Positions 8,568 to 18,886 are shown, counted from the stretch's first letter. The stretch: DNA of 32,000 nt from Candidatus Poseidoniaceae archaeon (GCA_943789275.1 CALSTM010000002.1:150001-182000); one strand, 5' to 3'. Program-made: numbers and translations. The notes: a model not told the origin generated them from the letters alone.

Positions 8568-8895
8568 GGTTTTGGGAAAGCATGTGACACTTCAAATGTG
8601 CTTTTGTAAATCAAATGTATAAGCTTGTGAGGAACAACCACAAGGGCTACTCCAAAAAATACCCTTGTGAAGATGCGGATCGTGTACAAGGGTGTTTAGC
8701 AAAACCCTCGTGAACAGAAGTAAATCACTTTGGTTGGCCCGCTTTGCTTGTTGTAGGAACAGCGTTGATTATCTTTGCAGCAACAAGATGGGCGAAGAAA
8801 TAGGGTCTATCCGAATACCCATTGAAACGGATTTACAATTTCAAAGGGCTTTCAATCTGTCCTTCGACAGGCTAATCTCAAAAACCGATCTACAC

Positions 8896-8964
8896 AAGGG
8901 GCCCCCTCGTAGCCGTATACGTGTACAACCGTACCGTTGAAGCGTATACGAACAAAGGGGCCCC
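8896..8964. repeat. structured repeat copy A (left island boundary)
   Basis: The 40-nt core 8896-8935 is AAGGGGCCCCCTCGTAGCCGTATACGTGTACAACCGTACC. The self-complementary blocks GGGGCCCC (8898-8905 / 8957-8964) and CGTATACG (8914-8921 / 8943-8950) can nest into a hairpin of about 67 nt. Confidence 0.8.
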
Positions 8965-8982
8965 TTATGTTTGTTCGAAAAT

Positions 8983-10044
8983 TCATGTATTCAATGACTT
9001 TAATGCATTGACGATTCTAGAAGATCTTAATCTCTTCAAATCCTTTTCATTTAAGACTTCAATTACAAATCTTCTGCTGTATAGGTTGCGTGTTGCCAAT
9101 TCATCCTTAATGTCAAAATACGTTATTTCTTGAAAACCCGGTAAGTTGCAAACAAAATCTTGATCTGAAAAAGATTGTTTTTCTTTAGTAGACTCCTCAA
9201 AGGCATAAAAATGGTTATCATCAAACCCAACAACCAACAATGGCTTTTCCTTGTTATCTGCAAGACAAACAATTTTCCCGACAAGTGATGGATTGTTAGG
9301 CTTGCCTAGTTCACCCTTGTTATCTTTTGAAAATTTGATATGCGGAAGTTCTCGAATTTTACTTATATGGTCTTCAGAAAGCCTGCCGATGACAGAATTA
9401 ACCTGTTCCGATGATATAGTGATTGGTTTTGATTCAAGACTTAAATGAGTAATGTCATTTGATGGGAGTTCAGATGAAAAAAAAGTCAAACTGTTTAGAG
9501 AACCGTCAAGTATATCACACTCTGGTAAGATCAGTAAATTACCATTTTTCAACTTCCCAACAATTACGCCTAAGTTTAAATCTTCCAATCCGATATGTAT
9601 ACTAGAATCATGTTCATTCCTAACCCAACATATCAAGTCCCATCGACTAGCATTGTTTTGCTCTGTTCTATCTGAAGAAAACCATGACCTCATTGCACAC
9701 CTTGCTAATAAGTCCTCCAACCTATCTGGATTGAGTCGCCCTATTCTAGATTTAATCTTATCAGATTTCACTCCCTTAACAATTTCCAGTTGGAAATATG
9801 TTTCGTGTTTGATTGTTCTTGCATTCTCATGCTCAATGCAATACGGAGAAACTTCAAATGAGGTGAACATCTCATTCCTAACCAACAAATGTTCCGGAGT
9901 TGGATATGATGTACCACTTAAAACAGCAATAATTTCGTCTTGGTCTTCTAGCACAATTGCGGGATGTAAAGTGCCTTTCTCATCATTCTCAAATTCAAAA
10001 TCTATCCAAACCAAGTCACCCAAATCAAAGTCATCTTCCCGCAT
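8983..10044 (-). CDS. hypothetical protein with three tandem PemK/MazF-like (SH3-fold toxin) repeats
   Basis: Repeat 1, GDLVWIDFE..GTLHPAIVLE..IIAVLSGTS...IGRLNPDRLEDLLAR, parallels the MazF pattern GDI.W.DF..G.E..+.RPA.VLS...V.PITS...IG.L....L..I. Repeats 2 and 3 keep the terminal motif (VIGRLSEDHISKIRE; VIEVLNEKDLKRLR). ATG 10044 is preferred over TTG 10059, and TTTATGAAAA lies just upstream. Confidence 0.7.
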   Translation of the reverse strand: MREDDFDLGDLVWIDFEFENDEKGTLHPAIVLEDQDEIIAVLSGTSYPTPEHLLVRNEMFTSFEVSPYCIEHENARTIKHETYFQLEIVKGVKSDKIKSRIGRLNPDRLEDLLARCAMRSWFSSDRTEQNNASRWDLICWVRNEHDSSIHIGLEDLNLGVIVGKLKNGNLLILPECDILDGSLNSLTFFSSELPSNDITHLSLESKPITISSEQVNSVIGRLSEDHISKIRELPHIKFSKDNKGELGKPNNPSLVGKIVCLADNKEKPLLVVGFDDNHFYAFEESTKEKQSFSDQDFVCNLPGFQEITYFDIKDELATRNLYSRRFVIEVLNEKDLKRLRSSRIVNALKSLNT

Positions 10045-10327
10045 ATAATCATCTTCCAATTTTCATAAACCAATTCCAGGACCAGTCTACGGGGGGAACC
10101 TCAACCACGTGATCTGTATGCTAGTATCAGCCTTCCACTGCCGATAGTACTTAAAGAAATTGATAAGCATATTATAACAATTCACAAGGGGTTCTCCATA
10201 ACACCCACTGATTCATCCTGCCCATACACATGACCTTGCTATGGGCCATATTGAACCCTAGCGTTGTATAGGACGGACATTAGTTGGAAATGAGAAAGAT
10301 TATGTTGACCTTAGCATTGAGAATAGT

Positions 10328-11188
10328 ATGGCCGCAACCATTTCTCTGGCTAATTTGGCAATTGGCGTTCTCACTGGTACAGAAGATGTGCCTGGAAATA
10401 TTCTAGAACACATCAATCAAGAGAGCGTCTCAAATCTCGATTCGGCAGGGATGGTGTGGTTACTCAAATGGGTCACGGCATTCCCGGCCTCAAACGATAT
10501 AGAACATATTTTTCAGCACCATTTTTCACAGTACCTTGAGCAAACAGAAGATCCACATGTTCTAGCTCACATGTTGTTATATGCAGATACGGTTCATGAA
10601 AATCCTTCATTAAAGACAACGATTGAAAGGAGAATAAAACACACTAATCTTCAGCACAATCAACTAATTCAATCTGCTCGGCGCTCTATTGTATTAGACC
10701 GGAGGTTTGAAGACCTTTGTGATTCAATGCCTCCACCCGATGATAATGAGGGGTATGTAGAAGATTTGAAATGGTATTCAAATAATGATGATCCATTATT
10801 CATTGGTCCATCCTATCACAGACTTATTTCTTCAGCAATATGCCAGGCACTGAGTAAAAAAATTGTTTCGGATGAACACATCGATGCACTGGAAAACATT
10901 TCATCAACTGGAGTTGAAAACGCTCTTTGTGTTGCGCAATTGCATTATTGTAACCACAATCAAACTAGATGTTTTGAAATCATTCAAGATGTAATTGATA
11001 CTGTGCATGAATTGCCTAACAATGATTCAAGTCAAAAATATGCCGAGGATTTTCGAAAAGAATGGAGGTTGGCTCATAATAATCATCTTTCAACTCTGTG
11101 GCATCCTCGAAATTTACCATGGATGAAATCAAGGCCCATTGGATACTGGAGATTGGTTTTGGATTTGGAGGTTGCGAATAATGAGTAA
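10328..11188 (+). CDS. hypothetical His-rich, predicted all-helical protein
   Basis: 286-aa ORF with an ATG start. GATTATGT-like A/T box about 21 nt upstream. Its stop overlaps the start of the downstream nuclease gene (ATGAGTAA, 8-nt overlap). Confidence 0.65.
   Translation: MAATISLANLAIGVLTGTEDVPGNILEHINQESVSNLDSAGMVWLLKWVTAFPASNDIEHIFQHHFSQYLEQTEDPHVLAHMLLYADTVHENPSLKTTIERRIKHTNLQHNQLIQSARRSIVLDRRFEDLCDSMPPPDDNEGYVEDLKWYSNNDDPLFIGPSYHRLISSAICQALSKKIVSDEHIDALENISSTGVENALCVAQLHYCNHNQTRCFEIIQDVIDTVHELPNNDSSQKYAEDFRKEWRLAHNNHLSTLWHPRNLPWMKSRPIGYWRLVLDLEVANNE
11167..11172 (+). promoter_or_regulatory. Shine-Dalgarno GGAGGT for the GIY-YIG gene
   Basis: GGAGGT lies 8 nt upstream of ATG 11181, inside the 3' end of the preceding ORF. 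This fits translational coupling. Confidence 0.6.
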
Positions 11189-12260
11189 AAAATCACGTAA
11201 GATCCCAACTTGCGGAATTTGTGGGGAATCAGGCCATAGATCGCCCACCTGTCAAAAAGTAAAATCAATCATGTTAAAATGGGAGAAATTTGCCAGTGTT
11301 GAAGATTTTATAAAAGATCAATATCTTCTCAGCCCTATTAAAAATACCTCGAAATCGACGAAGGTTGGAGGAAAACGTGAAACACTGAGGTTTGGCAAAT
11401 GTCAAGGTTGGTACTCATTAGAAAGTGATTCTGGAGTGCATTACATTGGATTGGTTGGAGAAGTCAGCTCCAAAACGAAAATTCAGTCTAAAAACTCATT
11501 TTATGAGCGTTGGTTGGGCCACTACACGGATAGTAGAAGAAGCTGGCATGATAAGGGCGGATTTGGTGCAGGAAACAATGGAACTTGGCCGAGTGACCAT
11601 CTGAAAGATGGGAAATTACTTTCAAAAAATAAATACCAATTGTTGATTAGTAAGGTGAATAATATGGCAATTGATTACGATGAAACAAGGAAGAGAACTC
11701 CAAAGCCGAAATTTATTGTCCCAGGAGTTGAACAAGCTGCGCTGATAACAAATGTAGAACAATACATGATACATCGTTATGCAAATAATCCCGCCACTCG
11801 TAAGTTTAACAAAGATACTCCAAGCGTACTAGTTGATTCAGAGGGCACTAAAGTGAGTTTCAAACCAGATAAAGAGATTTTATTCAACACCAGTAACACC
11901 AAAACCATAAATAAAACACCACCTAATATCAGAGTCAGTATTTCGCCGAAAACTGGAGTAAACATGTCCCACTTGTGCGAATTAAACGATGAAGAGAGGA
12001 CAATGAACGATTACAAAAAGACATACAAAAAAGATCTAAAAAAGCCAGCAGCGGCTGAGAAAGCACCAGCAAAGAAATCACCAGCAAAGAAATCACCAGC
12101 AAAGAAAGCAATCAGTTCGAAAAAGAAAAATTTAACCAAAGTCCAAACTTTGCGAAAAGCGAGAGAAAAGAAACAGGATACTTGGTCTTGGAACGGAAAA
12201 AGAATGGGGAAAGTGGCTAATTATGTCATCAAGAAGGGGAAAAGAGTTGCAAAAAAATAA
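11181..12260 (+). CDS. CCHC zinc-knuckle / GIY-YIG nuclease (I-TevI-like) / AKKSP-repeat basic-tail protein
   Basis: CGICGESGHRSPTC fits CX2CX4HX4C. GWY-x9-YIG is followed by FYERWLGHY (compare I-TevI FEKRWKRHF), with later acidic residues (VEQAALITNVEQ). The C-terminus is KKPAAAEKAPAKKSPAKKSPAKK. I use ATG 11181 with its SD rather than the ORF-track start at 11139. Confidence 0.75.
   Translation: MSKKSRKIPTCGICGESGHRSPTCQKVKSIMLKWEKFASVEDFIKDQYLLSPIKNTSKSTKVGGKRETLRFGKCQGWYSLESDSGVHYIGLVGEVSSKTKIQSKNSFYERWLGHYTDSRRSWHDKGGFGAGNNGTWPSDHLKDGKLLSKNKYQLLISKVNNMAIDYDETRKRTPKPKFIVPGVEQAALITNVEQYMIHRYANNPATRKFNKDTPSVLVDSEGTKVSFKPDKEILFNTSNTKTINKTPPNIRVSISPKTGVNMSHLCELNDEERTMNDYKKTYKKDLKKPAAAEKAPAKKSPAKKSPAKKAISSKKKNLTKVQTLRKAREKKQDTWSWNGKRMGKVANYVIKKGKRVAKK
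12064..12108 (+). repeat. 3 x 15-bp tandem repeat CACCAGCAAAGAAAT inside the nuclease gene
   Basis: Copies lie at 12064-12078, 12079-12093 and 12094-12108, and the last base of the third copy differs. They encode the (S)PAKK repeats. Confidence 0.9.
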
Positions 12261-12265
12261 TTGAA

Positions 12266-12294
12266 TCTGTCTTTTTTAAAAAGCAAATCACAGA
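12266..12294 (+). terminator. putative terminator: T6 run within hairpin/palindrome
   Basis: TCTGT (12266-12270) pairs with ACAGA (12290-12294) around the palindrome CTTTTTTAAAAAG (12271-12283). It starts 6 nt after the stop at 12260. An oligo-T tract is the usual archaeal termination signal. Confidence 0.4.
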
Positions 12295-12366
12295 CTAAAA
12301 GTTCCTTCTTCAACAGTCCCTGTGTATGTATACGAAGCCATGAGTAGACTCAAACATGAGTGTTAA

Positions 12367-12437
12367 AAGGGGCCCCCTCGAAGCCGTATACGTGTACAAC
12401 GGTACCCATGTGAATGCAGACGTGCATAAGGGGGCCC
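12367..12437. repeat. structured repeat copy B (right island boundary)
   Basis: The core 12367-12406 is AAGGGGCCCCCTCGAAGCCGTATACGTGTACAACGGTACC. Next comes an ATGCA-GACG-TGCAT hairpin, then AAGGGGGCCC (12428-12437), which can pair with the first GGGGCCCC block. Confidence 0.8.
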
Positions 12438-12479
12438 GTTGTGTATAATGTTTGAATTTGACAATCTGGGATTGATATC

Positions 12480-13595
12480 TCACTCTACTTCTTGAAGTCG
12501 TGTGCCGTCTCCAAGAAGGCCAACACTGCAATCGTACCCGGGATTAATGCAATTGTTGATGATGAGGTCCATGATGTCCGGGTCCCATCCATTCATCCAG
12601 TCGCCATGCAAAGATGAGCCGCTCGGGTGTGATGCATTCATGTCTGATGAGAGATACCATGTGTCCGATGGACCGGTCTCTTCCGTGACCCAGAATGCAA
12701 ATTTGTACGATATTTCAGGAATGGCTACGGGGTGTGAGTCCGGGCAATATCCCGTGCCTGTGTTTGGTGCCTCAGCGAGGATAGGATAGGACATGTGGCT
12801 GCGCTGATTTTCTGAGGTGAGATTTTGTCCATCCCAACATTGTGGAAAAACGACCCTAAACTCGAGTAATTCACCTGGTTGACATTCAGGCAAATACGGC
12901 ACATGATCCATTGGATCTCCCTCATCGAATTGAGGAGAAGGAGCCTCCCAATGTTCGCAACGATACTTCGCACTTATCACGTCTTGCGGTTCTGGTCTGT
13001 CATGACCTGCAATCATCACCAAGCCTTCAGGTGGGGCTTGAATAAGCTCCGCAGGAATATGGTAGCCGCTTTTGTAGTAAAAGAGAGGTTCAACATATTC
13101 CAGCCTGGTTCCATCTGCTGAAAACAATGATGGCACCCAATAAGCGGCTTGATTCAAAGCCACTCCTTCGCAAGTCGTTTGATCTGTTGCGTTCCTCAGT
13201 TGTTCCGTCGTGGTGTTTGCATCCGTTTCAGGGAATCCAAAGAAAACATGCTCGTGAGCAGCCCCTGTTTGTCCGGGATATACGAGAGGGTCGTCATTGT
13301 TGACATGGGATTCTGTGCAGTGTGTACGAAAATTCCCGGTTCCGTCTTCGTTGATGTAGATGTTTTCATCAGAATAAATTCTGCCTGGCTGTAGGTCGAT
13401 CTCAGGAGGGGGGTTCGTCTTTACGAGATCGCTTTCATCCTCACCATCTTCGTCTCCCTCAAACCAATCGAAGGCATCAATGGCGATGATGCTTGCAACA
13501 ATCATTAGAAGAATAGAAAAGGACGTGATTTTGGTGCCGAAGAACTTCGCTGACGTAGCAACATCGACTTCTCGGAAATTCTCAGTTTCCTCCAC
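12480..13595 (-). CDS. DUF1996 domain protein with N-terminal membrane anchor
   Basis: The TM segment is ITSFSILLMIVASIIAIDAF. The motif FRTHCTESHVNNDDPLVYPGQTGAAHEHVFFG matches the DUF1996 signature (sH...DDPIv.PG....H.H.FFG). The start is GTG, with TTATCAAT (rc of 13617-13624) exactly 21 nt upstream. Confidence 0.8.
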   Translation of the reverse strand: MEETENFREVDVATSAKFFGTKITSFSILLMIVASIIAIDAFDWFEGDEDGEDESDLVKTNPPPEIDLQPGRIYSDENIYINEDGTGNFRTHCTESHVNNDDPLVYPGQTGAAHEHVFFGFPETDANTTTEQLRNATDQTTCEGVALNQAAYWVPSLFSADGTRLEYVEPLFYYKSGYHIPAELIQAPPEGLVMIAGHDRPEPQDVISAKYRCEHWEAPSPQFDEGDPMDHVPYLPECQPGELLEFRVVFPQCWDGQNLTSENQRSHMSYPILAEAPNTGTGYCPDSHPVAIPEISYKFAFWVTEETGPSDTWYLSSDMNASHPSGSSLHGDWMNGWDPDIMDLIINNCINPGYDCSVGLLGDGTRLQEVE

Positions 13596-13616
13596 GAGGC
13601 TCCCTCGTGTTGGTTA

Positions 13617-13624
13617 TTGATAAG
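13617..13624 (-). promoter_or_regulatory. TATA-like box (TTATCAAT on minus strand) for the DUF1996 gene
   Basis: 21-nt spacing to GTG 13595. Confidence 0.4.
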
Positions 13625-13790
13625 GTATCGTACATCTTGATTTCAGAATCAAGGAAATCAAAATTCCAACATAAGTTTCATGAAAATTGTTCATTAGCAT
13701 AATCCCGATATTGAGGATTTTCATTTGCCAATCTCCAAGGGCCTCTTCACTGACCCACGGAGATAAGATTCGAATTCACAAGGGTTCGCA

Positions 13791-13828
13791 GTGGGTCGTG
13801 TTCGACGCTAGCGTCTAAAATGACCCAC
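13791..13828. repeat. 38-bp imperfect palindrome GTGGGTC-N6-GACGCTAGCGTC-N6-GACCCAC
   Basis: The outer 7-mers and the central 12-mer are perfectly self-complementary; the 6-nt spacers are not. A third GACCCAC lies at 13752-13758. Confidence 0.85.
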
Positions 13829-13840
13829 GCAAAGCCCATT
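13809..13840. repeat. left arm of 32-nt inverted repeat flanking the lipoprotein gene
   Basis: TAGCGTCTAAAATGACCCACGCAAAGCCCATT matches the reverse complement of 15139-15170 at 31/32 positions. 13809-13833 is perfect against 15146-15170. Confidence 0.9.
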
Positions 13841-13961
13841 CAAACAGCATTCGCATTCGCATGGGTATTCGGATGAACCCTTACGAATTATCCGATTCGA
13901 ATTATTTGATACATTGAAATTAATAGAAACAACTAATTGATTAACTCACTAAAATTAATCT

Positions 13962-15116
13962 ATGCAGAAAATACCACTGATAATTTTTTTAATGATGATG
14001 GCCGTATCCCTTTCCGGATGCATTGGAGGAGAAGTTGAAACCAGCGATGGAGAAGAACTCATCTTGGAAGATACCGATGATTGGCCAACCTACCTTGTTC
14101 CAACTTCCGGAGATCTACCAGCCTGTGACGCGACCACACTCGGAAGGTTGTATTATGTTGAAGCAGAAACGAGTTTTCAAGCTTGCAGTTCATCTGGTTG
14201 GAACGTTATTGACTTTTCAACTCCCCTGAATCAAGCACCAAGAATTTCAGCAACCATCATGGCAGATGATGACGGACATAGCTTCTCGGAGGATTTGTCT
14301 GCAGAATGGATGTATGTTGGACAGTTGACTTGGTCTGCAGTTGACCCCGAAGGGGAAGCCGTTACGGTCGGAGTGGACCATGACCGAGACGGTACTGCCG
14401 ACATCATGCTTCCAAGAGCAGAGGGCTCAATAGTTGATGTTGCAGGCGGAATGCTGACGGTGCCATGGAACGGAAGTATTGTCAGCGAGAGGCTGGAGTT
14501 CCCCAACAGTTGTTACTTGGCGTTTACAAGAATGATCGATGTGATTTCAACAGATGCTTCAGGCATCTCAGCGTCGTACACCGTCCAAACCGGTGCCATA
14601 TCCTCAAATAATATATTCAGCAACATGTATTCTGCTGAAGATGTTGATTGGGTTGAAATGCTCTTTGAAAATTATGTTTCCCAAGACGATCTTGATTGGC
14701 TTGATGGAACTGCTACAGACTCGAATTGCGAGGCGGACTCTAACTCAGGACCCCAACTTAGCGTTTATGATTTCACAGCACAGGACTCCGGCGTTGCAGT
14801 GAGTTCAGCATCTGATGATGTTCTCTTTAGCATAACCTATCAACAAGGAAGCAGTTTAGGTTCAGAATTTTTGAAAATTACGCTTTCTGTAAATGGAAAT
14901 CAACCCGTGAACTGTTATGCATCTACGGGAATGGGGGATTGCAGCTATGAACTTTCAACTACAGGTGAAACGTTTTCCGTTGGGGCTTCAATCGTTGTAT
15001 CCGAGGATGGTACTGATCTATGCAATGAAGGTCATGACCCTTGCGAAATTTCCATTACGTTGGTAAACTCCGACACCAATGAAGTATTGGATAACATCAC
15101 CGTTGAAGTTGAATGA
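13962..15116 (+). CDS. secreted acidic lipoprotein / surface protein, function unknown
   Basis: The signal peptide carries a lipobox (MQKIPLIIFLMMMAVSLSGC). The mature part is very Asp/Glu/Ser/Thr-rich with paired Cys residues. Confidence 0.75.
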   Translation: MQKIPLIIFLMMMAVSLSGCIGGEVETSDGEELILEDTDDWPTYLVPTSGDLPACDATTLGRLYYVEAETSFQACSSSGWNVIDFSTPLNQAPRISATIMADDDGHSFSEDLSAEWMYVGQLTWSAVDPEGEAVTVGVDHDRDGTADIMLPRAEGSIVDVAGGMLTVPWNGSIVSERLEFPNSCYLAFTRMIDVISTDASGISASYTVQTGAISSNNIFSNMYSAEDVDWVEMLFENYVSQDDLDWLDGTATDSNCEADSNSGPQLSVYDFTAQDSGVAVSSASDDVLFSITYQQGSSLGSEFLKITLSVNGNQPVNCYASTGMGDCSYELSTTGETFSVGASIVVSEDGTDLCNEGHDPCEISITLVNSDTNEVLDNITVEVE

Positions 15117-15138
15117 AACGATATATTGTAGATTTTGC

Positions 15139-15170
15139 AATGGGTTTTGCGTGGGTCATTTTAGACGCTA
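15139..15170. repeat. right arm of 32-nt inverted repeat
   Basis: AATGGGTTTTGCGTGGGTCATTTTAGACGCTA, the reverse complement of the left arm with one mismatch. Confidence 0.9.
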
Positions 15171-15267
15171 CCCTTTGCTAGAGGCATAAGCAACGCCGCC
15201 ATGCACCAGCAGTAAATACAAAGATTCCAACAACAATTCTCAAAAGCCGTCTTTCATTCGTTGATGC

Positions 15268-17098: not shown

Positions 17099-18886
17099 AT
17101 GGACGAGACGCAACTGTCCCAGAATTCCGTCGCAGAACTCAAAGAAATGCTGCGCAGTAAAGGATTACCTGTCAGTGGACGCAAGGCGGATTTAATCGCT
17201 CGGCTCAGCGAATCTTCATCAGAAACAAAACAGATCTTGGACGGTGCATTCCCCTCAGAAAGAACCGTTAATCTCGAAGACGAGGAGGAACAAGCAGGCG
17301 ACTTAACGTTCAAACAACGATTGGGTGTTCAAGTCTACGGGCCCCTCAACGTTGGCGCTCTTATCGCTATTGCAATGGCTGTCATCATGGTTACAGCAAC
17401 AATTCTCGTTTTCAAGCCGACTTGGTTAGGTTTTGAACGTCAGTACGATTATGAATTGATTGATTTTGACCAAGACCAAACTCGAAATTTCGCTCAAGAC
17501 CTTGTTAACCTTGGACATCCAGATTGGGAAGGTCGAATGAGTGGAACAATTGAGGAAACAAATACCTCACAATACATACTTGGCAAGTTGCAAGACATGG
17601 GATACACACCCGAAAACAACGAGTTTCAAGTGCCAATGCATCATGTGAATTCTGAACCCAGTTTTAGACTCTGTGTCCGTGGTGTGTTAGGCGATAGCTC
17701 ACCCTGTGAAGGGTTTTTTGCGGCCGGCTCTCAAGTGACGCCTTTCCAACACCGCTCTGATTATGTCATTCAGGGATTCTCAGGCCAATCCGAATACATG
17801 TTCAATGAAGACATCATAGTCACGGACTTGGGTAACGGAACCGATGAAGCATTGTGGCAAACAGCGACTGGAACCATCGGCTATGTTCGAGGTGACAGTT
17901 CCAAGGTTGGAAACACAGAATTGTACAGCAATGCTGCAATCAACGACCTGGCAGGACTCATCAGCGTCAACAAAAACTACCAGTGCGGAAAAATTGAGGG
18001 CAACGATTGCGTACCGATTTTCAAGGGGACAAACTACGACGCCTTGGTTGAGGCAAACGGTGGAAGCCTTCCAACAGACATCCCGTTTATCTCGATGTCA
18101 AAAGATGCTGGAGATATTTTTGAAGCAATGGTCATCAACTCAAGTGAGCCTGCTTCTATAGAACTCATCATAGACGTCACCAACGACCAAGAAAGGACCA
18201 TCTATGTGCCCTGCGGTAGTATTCAAGGTCGTACCTCTGAAGTCGTGATCGCCGGTGGTCACCACGATACTGTCTACCATGCACAAGGCGCAGTGGATGA
18301 TTCCTCTGGAAGCGCAAGCATCCTTGAGATGGCTCGACAAATTGCTGAAGTCATCAATGAAACCGGAACGCCAGAGCGTACGATTCGATTCTGTACATGG
18401 GGCGGTGAAGAAGAAGGCCTGTGGGGGAGCCGAGCATATGTTGAGCAGATGCAATCCAGTCTGCGCGATAATTTGAGACTGTACATTAACCTCGACATGA
18501 ACCACGTCGACGCAGATTTTGCAAACCGTGGCAATTCACTAACATTGTTCACCAACAACCAAGACGATTATGGGCACATCGTGCGAATTACTGACCTCTA
18601 CAAACAGGAAAGAAGTGAGATTGCTGACAAATACGATATTCAATTCAGTTTACTTGATGGAGCGCAAGGCGAACCCGACCAAATGCCGTGCAATTCCGAT
18701 CACTGTCCTTTTGTCTATGACTTGGGTGGCAAGAACGGACGAGCAGTTGTGTGTTACGGCAGCGGCAGTTGGGAATACCACACGTACCTCGACACCATGG
18801 ATCGATTCAATGAAGAATCACTGGCTGTTTCAACGACTGTGTATGGGACTTACATGCGGTTGCTTGCCTACGACCTAGATGCTTGA
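17099..18886 (+). CDS. membrane-anchored M28 family metallopeptidase with N-terminal SAP domain
   Basis: The SAP motif is SVAELKEMLRSKGLPVSGRKADLIARL and the TM segment is VGALIAIAMAVIMVTATILVF. M28 zinc ligand motifs are GGHHDTV, VDDSSGSA, GGEEEGLWGS, INLDM and SDHCPF. Confidence 0.85.
   Translation: MDETQLSQNSVAELKEMLRSKGLPVSGRKADLIARLSESSSETKQILDGAFPSERTVNLEDEEEQAGDLTFKQRLGVQVYGPLNVGALIAIAMAVIMVTATILVFKPTWLGFERQYDYELIDFDQDQTRNFAQDLVNLGHPDWEGRMSGTIEETNTSQYILGKLQDMGYTPENNEFQVPMHHVNSEPSFRLCVRGVLGDSSPCEGFFAAGSQVTPFQHRSDYVIQGFSGQSEYMFNEDIIVTDLGNGTDEALWQTATGTIGYVRGDSSKVGNTELYSNAAINDLAGLISVNKNYQCGKIEGNDCVPIFKGTNYDALVEANGGSLPTDIPFISMSKDAGDIFEAMVINSSEPASIELIIDVTNDQERTIYVPCGSIQGRTSEVVIAGGHHDTVYHAQGAVDDSSGSASILEMARQIAEVINETGTPERTIRFCTWGGEEEGLWGSRAYVEQMQSSLRDNLRLYINLDMNHVDADFANRGNSLTLFTNNQDDYGHIVRITDLYKQERSEIADKYDIQFSLLDGAQGEPDQMPCNSDHCPFVYDLGGKNGRAVVCYGSGSWEYHTYLDTMDRFNEESLAVSTTVYGTYMRLLAYDLDA

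Follow-up and report, generated by a model that had tools for sequence, protein, structure and literature searches.

Two neighbouring gene cassettes, probably mobile independently of each other, at an insertion hotspot in the chromosome of a Marine Group II archaeon

Do three genes that stand side by side in a genomic island form one system, or are they the cargo of something that moves? This question is raised by positions 8983-12260 of a 32,000-nucleotide stretch of DNA from a Candidatus Poseidoniaceae archaeon (GCA_943789275.1 CALSTM010000002.1:150001-182000), the whole of which is called the window here. A gene for a MazF-like protein (p1) lies there divergently from a gene for a protein of 286 amino acids (aa; p2) and a gene for a zinc-knuckle protein (p3), the last two forming the p2-p3 operon. 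The original prediction, made from the DNA alone, saw in these genes a single undescribed module of the toxin or defence kind. This was not borne out in our analysis. We consider it probable, at roughly three chances in four, that the region consists of two adjacent, independently mobile cassettes, A and B, which occupy a chromosomal hotspot, are bounded by lineage-specific recombination sites and carry the three genes as cargo; each of them was found alone elsewhere.

The flanks of the region carry genes for aRF1, class I LysRS, ArgRS and ribonucleotide reductase, and the stretch therefore belongs to an archaeal chromosome. The insertion in this Poseidoniaceae (Marine Group II) chromosome measures 3.47 kb and lies at a hotspot between a DLH gene and a dUTPase gene, with a GC content of 0.37-0.39 over the three genes versus 0.46-0.48 in the flanks. 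This low GC and the precise absence of the insertion from 16 of 21 related contigs agree with the earlier proposal that the island was horizontally acquired. It is not tRNA-targeted, since tRNA and Rfam scans of the 32-kb window gave no match. The three open reading frames (ORFs) and their divergent layout proved real, with two starts revised: p1 was called at 8983..10059 on the minus strand and, by its homologues, starts at ATG 10044 (8983..10044, 353 aa); p2 occupies 10328..11188 on the plus strand (286 aa); and p3, called at 11139..12260 on the plus strand, starts by its homologues at ATG 11181 (11181..12260, 359 aa). As had been described, the p2 and p3 genes have 8 nt in common (ATGAGTAA) and p3 has a Shine-Dalgarno sequence of its own, GGAGGT, 8 nt 5' of its ATG.

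The independence of the two cassettes is seen when the locus is compared with others. The comparison data are metagenome assemblies throughout, with L-numbers for the loci or contigs compared and P-numbers for protein relatives, and alternative alleles of the locus were retrieved through an exact look-up of the flanking proteins. Cassette A (8933..10259, minus strand) comprises the p1 gene and about 215 bp of upstream DNA. L003-L009 carry the unit 8944-10274 (85-90% DNA identity) in different surroundings, with neither p2 nor p3; contigs encoding p1 relatives at 84% and 75% identity match the window over 8944-10274 only and have no p2 or p3 homologue. The gene across the junction from p1 differs as well, encoding a restriction endonuclease-like (REase-like) protein of 476 or 534 aa (476 aa in L003) or another product (L006). 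Cassette B (10260..12403, plus strand) comprises the p2-p3 operon and a 3' arm, and L010-L019 and L048-L050 share its unit 10276-12404 with 89-94% DNA identity. Where the flank suffices (L010, L051), p2-p3 stands without p1, and the shorter p2-p3 contigs L011-L019 also show none. In L051 and L052 a p3 homologue (37-39% identity) is preceded and overlapped by a p2 homologue (30%, E=7e-29), and a GGTACC palindrome follows; the 6.3-kb L051 contig carries no p1. A pairing kept at 30% and 37-39% identity without p1 argues that p2-p3 is a genuine co-evolving operon, real and translationally coupled to judge from its sequence, and that p1 is independent of it. Cassettes can insert either way round, which makes the divergent orientation of p1 and p2-p3 incidental. 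Co-occurrence of the three genes elsewhere largely fails: all three were found in one place only where a single two-cassette array recurs, in copies 97-100% identical (the window and L043, L001, L002, L044 and L047). The supposed module thus falls apart into two pieces of unrelated cargo and does not belong in a catalogue of systems.

What, then, bounds the cassettes? An ungapped palindrome scan came out empty because the arms of the sites contain indels, and folding together with gapped arm scoring was used in its place. The left boundary site (8892..8970) is an imperfect palindrome of about 75 bp with the core CGT|ACC at 8930-8935, a hybrid of a chromosomal arm and the arm of the p1 cassette. 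No other 90-nt DNA hairpin in the 32-kb window is as stable as this one (-20.4 kcal/mol, z -4.4); the site also has the best arm-complementarity score of 47 cores (37 vs null 10+-4) and is matched by nhmmer at E=6e-17, and homology to the island-free allele breaks at 8939. The right boundary site (12367..12445) is a palindrome with the core GGT|ACC at 12401-12406, matched by nhmmer at E=3.8e-20 and with breakpoints at 12396-12404 in seven loci. The island is flanked by a 40-nt direct repeat (95%, 8896-8935 and 12367-12406; repeat family D1). Between A and B lies the core CCT|AGC (10257..10262), a weak hybrid site without GGGGCCCC boxes, where the BLAST ends of the A unit (10264-10274) and of the B unit (10276) meet. 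It was first read as a decayed site inside a fused A+B cassette, a reading countered by the arms: the end arm of cassette A, '...TATGGGCCATATTGA(A/T)C', stands before the cores CGTAGC or GCTAGC in L003 and L006, and the right arm, '..ATAGGACGGAC', also stands upstream of cassette B in L010. Because the arms are shared with these three loci, we argue for a weak but real junction, if an uncertain one.

As a family, the sites are imperfect palindromes of about 75 bp or hybrid half-sites, in which the self-complementary boxes GGGGCCCC, CGTATACG and TGTACA surround a GGTACC-like core. A cassette end is an arm of about 35 nt, and two arms join at a 6-bp core such as GGT|ACC; the typical order within an arm is ACAAGGGGCCCC, about 8 nt, CGTATACG, about 8-10 nt and a 3-nt half-core (G/C)(G/C)T. 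Among 47 core-like hexamers, the three most complementary arm pairs are the mapped junctions at 8930, 13807 and 12401. A hidden Markov model (HMM) of the site finds only two strong sites in the window, both at the island edges, and aligns 18 distinct full sites with a constant geometry of about 75 nt. Contigs in independent assemblies end exactly at cores (both ends of L002, one end of L053). When 185,579 species-representative genomes were searched with the half-site pattern, 14 loci were hit, 13 of them in metagenome-assembled genomes (MAGs) of Poseidoniales, which identifies the host lineage and makes the element lineage-specific. The sole non-archaeal match, L026, comes from a MAG labelled Yoonia sp.; either chance or the mis-binning of a Poseidoniales contig may account for it. 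No p1 relative was present in a scan of species-representative genomes. In the viral contigs of IMG/VR neither relatives of p1 or p3 nor matches to the site pattern occur, and the genes are thus not assigned to a virus or plasmid core set. The Charybdis elements, which are small and circular and belong to Poseidoniales, proved unrelated to the cassettes.

A further observation concerns the 3' end of cassette B. Positions 2241-2556 of L053 are 88% identical to 12088-12403 of the window over a 316-bp 3' module that takes in the tail-coding region, the 3' untranslated region and the arm. In L053 this module belongs to P0022, a different GIY-YIG protein with a different upstream partner of 320 aa, and the contig stops at the core GGT. 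The module common to p3 and P0022 suggests an exchange of cassette ends as modules.

The exchange itself can be followed in the alleles of the population. Among 21 contigs with the DLH gene, 16 are island-free, 2 have the arrangement of the window and 3 carry other cassette sets. One of these three adds to the window genes an extra 3.4-kb cassette (a serine recombinase and a Pfam-confirmed GIY-YIG/CCHC protein), and the other two carry in place of the window genes a fatty-acid-hydroxylase cassette, which points one way in one contig and the other way in the second; one of the two has a 369-aa gene besides. In the island-free alleles L035 and L042, window position 12404 is joined to 8939. The hydroxylase cassette has, between identical flanks, the junctions GGT|AGG...GGT|ACG one way and GGT|ACC...CCT|ACG the other. 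Half-cores (GGT, GCT, CGT, CCT) remain with their own arms, the joints always fall at T|A, and TA alone is common to all of them. As read from these population contigs, cassettes are shown to have been gained, lost, inverted and relocated between loci, each independently, and breakage and rejoining to be precise, conservative, reciprocal and orientation-independent, inside the central TA and with an overlap of at most 2 bp.

An exchange confined to the central TA indicates a serine recombinase. The junctions display the conservative exchange, the central 2-bp overlap and the inverted half-sites that characterize these enzymes, and the inverted cassette gives the junctions predicted for them. 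The enzyme would be a small serine recombinase of the resolvase type, 262-265 aa long and encoded in sister cassettes; a symmetric 2-bp crossover would explain both the two orientations and the half-cores that travel with their arms, and the three genes would be the cargo of the cassettes. Recombinases of PF00239 scoring 100-104 bits are encoded in L001, L002, L044 and L047, in two variants 60% identical, and we infer that they act on these sites. Tyrosine recombinases require 6-8 bp of overlap homology, which argues against them as the overlap here is at most 2 bp, and none is annotated in any locus examined. Homologous recombination between the repeats is excluded because partner arms are often dissimilar.

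The recombinase genes have neighbours that deserve mention. In L002 (54-1683) and L044 (1063-2410), the serine recombinase gene is followed after 40 nt by a Pfam-confirmed GIY-YIG + zf-CCHC_5 gene of like orientation, and the two possibly form an operon. Other nuclease-like neighbours are PLD/DrmC-like (PF13091, 40.5 bits) or weakly type II REase-like (L047 2049-2756; L003 1709-3139; L004 125-1729), and such neighbour cassettes make the arrays look like a defence island.

Several points weigh against the reading of the region as two independently mobile cassettes. There is no recombinase gene in the 32-kb window, and the link of the candidate enzymes to the sites is a putative one. The middle junction (10257) is not significantly palindromic (score 14, fold z +0.4), and given this weakness A and B may currently move as one composite. 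The two occur together in at least three flanking contexts: window/L043; L001/L047, where a serine recombinase lies beyond p1; and L002/L044, where a recombinase cassette lies beyond p3. Between the flanking arms of the island-free allele are 17-22 additional nt (GTTGTGGTCGCCCGCATATACA; L035 9193-9209, L042 7612-7628), which resemble the inner half of another arm type, so that this allele is not a simple excision product. The cassette contexts come from metagenome assemblies. Finally, the GIY-YIG domain of p3 fails all profile tests, both structure models obtained (for p1 and p3) are unusable and p2 is an orphan, so that the cargo functions are putative.

Four other explanations were weighed. 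In the first, p3, together with p2, would itself move the cassette that encodes it: as a homing-type or structure-specific nuclease it would cut palindromic sites that are empty or cruciform, and repair would then copy the cassette in; nuclease-free cassettes would be mobilised in trans. This would fit the presence of three different GIY-YIG/CCHC families in cassettes, the position of one such gene only 40 nt downstream of a recombinase gene, the 316-bp 3' module (88%) of p3 and P0022 that ends at a core, and the palindrome that stands after p2-p3 even at 37% identity. Nevertheless, precise reciprocal TA joints between non-homologous arms are more readily explained by conservative recombination than by the repair of breaks, most cassette alleles are without a nuclease and GIY-YIG in p3 is unproven, and we regard this explanation as unlikely.

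The second explanation returns to one system, in which a MazF-like toxin and a nuclease operon would serve defence or addiction under the common control of a divergent promoter region. The intergenic region between p1 and p2, where such control would lie, holds the cassette junction. Each unit is found alone in other lineages, the partner across the junction from p1 changes (the 476-aa REase-like protein in L003, another in L006) and PADLOC gave no match. These results make a single system rather improbable, even though the three genes co-travel at 97-100% identity in three or more flanking contexts and neighbour cassettes often encode nucleases (PLD/DrmC-like, REase-like, GIY-YIG). A defence or addiction role of the cargo as such is plausible.

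It might also be thought that there is no dedicated system, the palindromes being repetitive extragenic palindromic (REP)-like elements or terminator hairpins and the patterns the outcome of homologous or illegitimate recombination between dispersed repeats. The palindromes of L025 do flank ordinary genes (an ABC transporter and a winged helix-turn-helix regulator), palindromes lie just 3' of genes, as terminators do, and the extra bases of the island-free allele would be in keeping with this. We hold it to be very improbable, since exchange is limited to the core TA while half-cores stay with their arms, partner arms are often dissimilar, the copy number is low (two strong sites per 32 kb and one pattern match per hit locus) and the geometry is constant over 18 distinct sites. 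That the differing contexts are chimeric joins made at repeated sequences, as might be suspected where all comparative data are metagenome assemblies and contigs often end at the sites, is hardly credible, because identical breakpoints are seen repeatedly across studies and assemblers that are, to judge by the contig names, independent (contig_/scaffold_ of 0.2-1.6 Mb, k141_, NODE_, JGI Ga), and the alleles are self-consistent, with identical flanks around a cassette present, absent or inverted.

The two-cassette reading thus places the locus among site-specific gene-cassette exchange systems, which are already known as a kind; the form found here, with its crossover position, site architecture, freedom of orientation, host domain and probable enzyme, differs from them and is apparently undescribed. 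Pdif (Xer) modules of Acinetobacter plasmids have 28-bp sites with a 6-bp spacer and use the host tyrosine recombinases XerC/D. They resemble the cassettes in being discrete modules (often toxin-antitoxin or resistance) between short sites, in varied contexts and orientations and mostly without a recombinase of their own; the present sites are about 75 bp long and exchange an overlap no longer than 2 bp. Among serine-recombinase systems are the res sites of Tn3/gamma-delta, the Hin/Gin invertases and the SCC elements with Ccr. With these the present system shares a central-dinucleotide crossover between inverted half-sites, a symmetric dinucleotide that allows both orientations and a strong PF00239 match, and with SCC also tandem cassette arrays at one chromosomal site. 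It differs in its archaeal host, in sites that are much longer and symmetric with several self-complementary boxes, and in its many hotspots per genome with cassettes of only 1.3-3.5 kb, and it is known here from sequence alone. Integrons have been reported in archaea too (PMC9668308). Like them, the present system has a chromosomal platform with arrays of small cassettes, most of them with one gene and with cargo largely of unassigned function, and cassette ends that are imperfect palindromes whose structure and geometry are better conserved than their sequence. In contrast, the crossover here is at the palindrome centre in TA and that of integrons at the 3' edge (G|TT of R'), the cassettes here stand in either orientation with their own upstream DNA, those of integrons being co-oriented, and the recombinases of the arrays are serine only, with no IntI tyrosine recombinase and no attI seen in the examined loci. 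By eye no attC-type RYYYAAC/GTTRRRY (R''/R') cores were seen, and the locus does not qualify as an integron. A full-text literature search gave no description of the site/cassette system, which does not prove that none exists, and likewise none of multi-domain MazF proteins.

Marine Group II (Poseidoniaceae) archaea are among the most abundant planktonic archaea and are uncultured. We tentatively propose that they have an undescribed exchange system, integron-like and mechanistically distinct, in which cassettes of 1-3.5 kb with multi-box palindromes of about 75 bp move among many hotspots through a small serine recombinase that cuts the central TA, p3-type nucleases and p2-type partners being accessory or selfish. 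The contigs give evidence at nucleotide resolution for active, orientation-free exchange of small cassettes at defined palindromes in wild populations of abundant uncultured archaea, and offer a concrete mechanism for the building of the flexible genome of Marine Group II. The site motif is searchable and could lead to a listing of the mobile gene pool of these archaea; the candidate recombinase/site pairing is compact and a possible genetic tool; and p2-p3 is flagged as a conserved orphan pair with a putative nuclease.

What the cargo might do was approached through the proteins. p1 had been described as a triple MazF-like protein, and of this the first domain stood, as a borderline MazF/PemK match. 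Residues 14-120 match PemK_toxin PF02452 at 23.8 bits against a cutoff of 23.1 (23.0 for the isolated domain), p1 matches phrog_1936 (PHROG 'MazF-like growth inhibitor') at E=6.5e-6, and the top five PDB matches of the p1 family profile are all E. coli MazF, though weak (E 0.1-0.5). The alignment covers GDLIWVDF...(R/H)PAVVL, the signature of the N-terminal domain reading GDLIWVDF...(R/H)PAIVL...GTS, and the position of Arg29 of E. coli MazF is an invariant His in the p1 family, which comprises 17 clusters only. Repeats 2 and 3 have no Pfam match and are linked, to each other and weakly to the first, through profile-profile comparison only: hhalign gives P=1.7e-4 for D2-D3 (83 columns), P=1.7e-3 for D1-D3 and P=0.05 for D1-D2. 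The p1 relatives P0015-P0017 (462-464 aa) carry an extra 108-aa unit, DX, between repeats 2 and 3 (DX-D3 P=2.7e-5), and the family therefore has three or four repeats; D2, D3 and DX have no Pfam match at E<=10. The secondary structure, beta-rich with a C-terminal helix three times over, is compatible with the SH3-like barrel of MazF, and the AlphaFold model, built on a 16-sequence alignment, was unusable (predicted local distance difference test, pLDDT, 39.6). A three-repeat architecture is thus plausible. Unlike MazF/PemK, whose homodimer subunit has about 110 aa, p1 has 353 aa, two or three extra degenerate repeats and no antitoxin gene. The absence of an antitoxin, already remarked on, was confirmed: the conserved unit 8944-10274 contains p1 only and the neighbours across the junction differ, so that p1 lacks the adjacent co-transcribed small antitoxin gene of type II toxin-antitoxin systems. 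It is probably a stand-alone RNA-binding or RNA-cleaving protein, whose extra degenerate domains most likely replace the homodimer partner or serve as a built-in regulator.

The p2 protein is represented by two close clusters only among 5.8 billion proteins, and no credible match was found in Pfam, PDB or PADLOC. Its conserved core is the C-terminal two thirds, with the motifs DLxWYxxNxxPLFxGPSxHRL, ALExxSSTG and VAQL. It does contain 5.9% His, in accordance with its description as His-rich, but the His-rich stretch is not kept in the homologues at 30% identity. A match to dUTPase_2 (E=0.03) was rejected, being below threshold and absent from the scan of a 30%-identity homologue, and a kinesin coiled-coil match in the PDB profile search was set aside as spurious.

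For p3, the proposed zinc knuckle is present as an exact C-x2-C-x4-H-x4-C pattern, with C11, C14, H19 and C24 invariant in close relatives and the pattern kept in P0026 and P0027, while its HMM score stays under threshold (11.5 bits against PF00098, cutoff 20.8); retroviral nucleocapsids head the PDB profile matches (E about 1). Lys and Arg make up 38% of the tail, which has KKSPAKK repeats. The assignment as a GIY-YIG nuclease found support in the motif residues and escaped every profile library: PF01541 gave no match in Pfam, PHROGs or the PDB profile for p3 or six relatives, nor did NCBIfam for p3 itself, in contrast to the GIY-YIG protein neighbouring the array in L044, which scores 34.1 bits against PF01541. 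Within a family of 39-100% identity, GWY78 (W77-Y78), Y88-I89-G90, R110, E193 and N202 are invariant, and the order of the catalytic motifs (GIY Tyr, YIG Tyr/Gly, Arg, Glu, Asn) is conserved. The hhalign comparisons in catalytic register are weak (P 0.03 with I-TevI, 0.037 with the L044 GIY-YIG protein and 0.005 with P0022), and their part that uses I-TevI and UvrC as reference sequences is a lead rather than a test. The AlphaFold model (7 sequences, pLDDT 36.5) was unusable; the order of two strands, helix, strand and long helix is compatible with GIY-YIG. An exhaustive phmmer search with residues 1-280 added three new true relatives, besides CCHC-only matches. It is likely that the nuclease core of p3 is of the GIY-YIG type.

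GIY-YIG nucleases with zinc fingers and DNA-binding tails are known from I-TevI-type homing endonucleases and from Slx1. p3 is like them in its motif order GxY...YIG...R..H...E...N, its zinc-binding element and its basic extension, and like Slx1-Slx4 in having a dedicated partner, p2. It differs in that its knuckle, a CCHC one of the retroviral type, stands at the N-terminus, YIG and Arg are separated by a long insert, the upstream partner p2 is obligate, and the assignment is made here from motifs alone. Most likely, p2-p3 represents a predicted DNA nuclease with its dedicated partner, a conflict module for defence or addiction. Neither the three proteins nor their relatives had a match in PADLOC-DB v2 at E<=0.1, in keeping with the earlier statement that no described system with this combination was known.

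Two further cassettes follow on the right. Cassette C (12404..13809, minus strand, 1.4 kb) has a DUF1996 gene at 12480..13595 and occurs at 99-100% DNA identity in at least six unrelated Poseidoniaceae contexts (L034, L037-L041), with both ends at cores. The C/D site (13779..13840, core GCT|AGC at 13807-13812) has the second-highest arm-complementarity score, 25.5, and breakpoints at 13795-13813. Cassette D (13810..15169, plus strand) carries a gene for a secreted protein of 384 aa at 13962..15116 and ends at the core GCT|ACC at 15167-15172; it is bounded by the inverted repeat I2, 97% complementary (13809-13840 and 15139-15170), and is absent from L036, where the joint has a shared 32-nt arm. 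As the DUF1996 gene and the gene for the 384-aa protein behave like A and B, the window is read as holding an array of four contiguous cassettes, 8933-15169, beginning with A and B.

The window has more copies of the heptamer ACAAGGG than expected (11 observed against 3.7; a count of 11 was reached in none of 100 shuffles). They gather in the intergenic DNA around cassettes (8640-8730, 10184, 13778), with short CACAAGGG...CCCTTGTG hairpins, and the segment 8661-8730 was found again beside cassettes in L010-L022. In the conserved flank outside the island, 17099-18886 encodes an M28 peptidase with a SAP domain (39.5 bits) at its N-terminus, a pairing that is uncommon.

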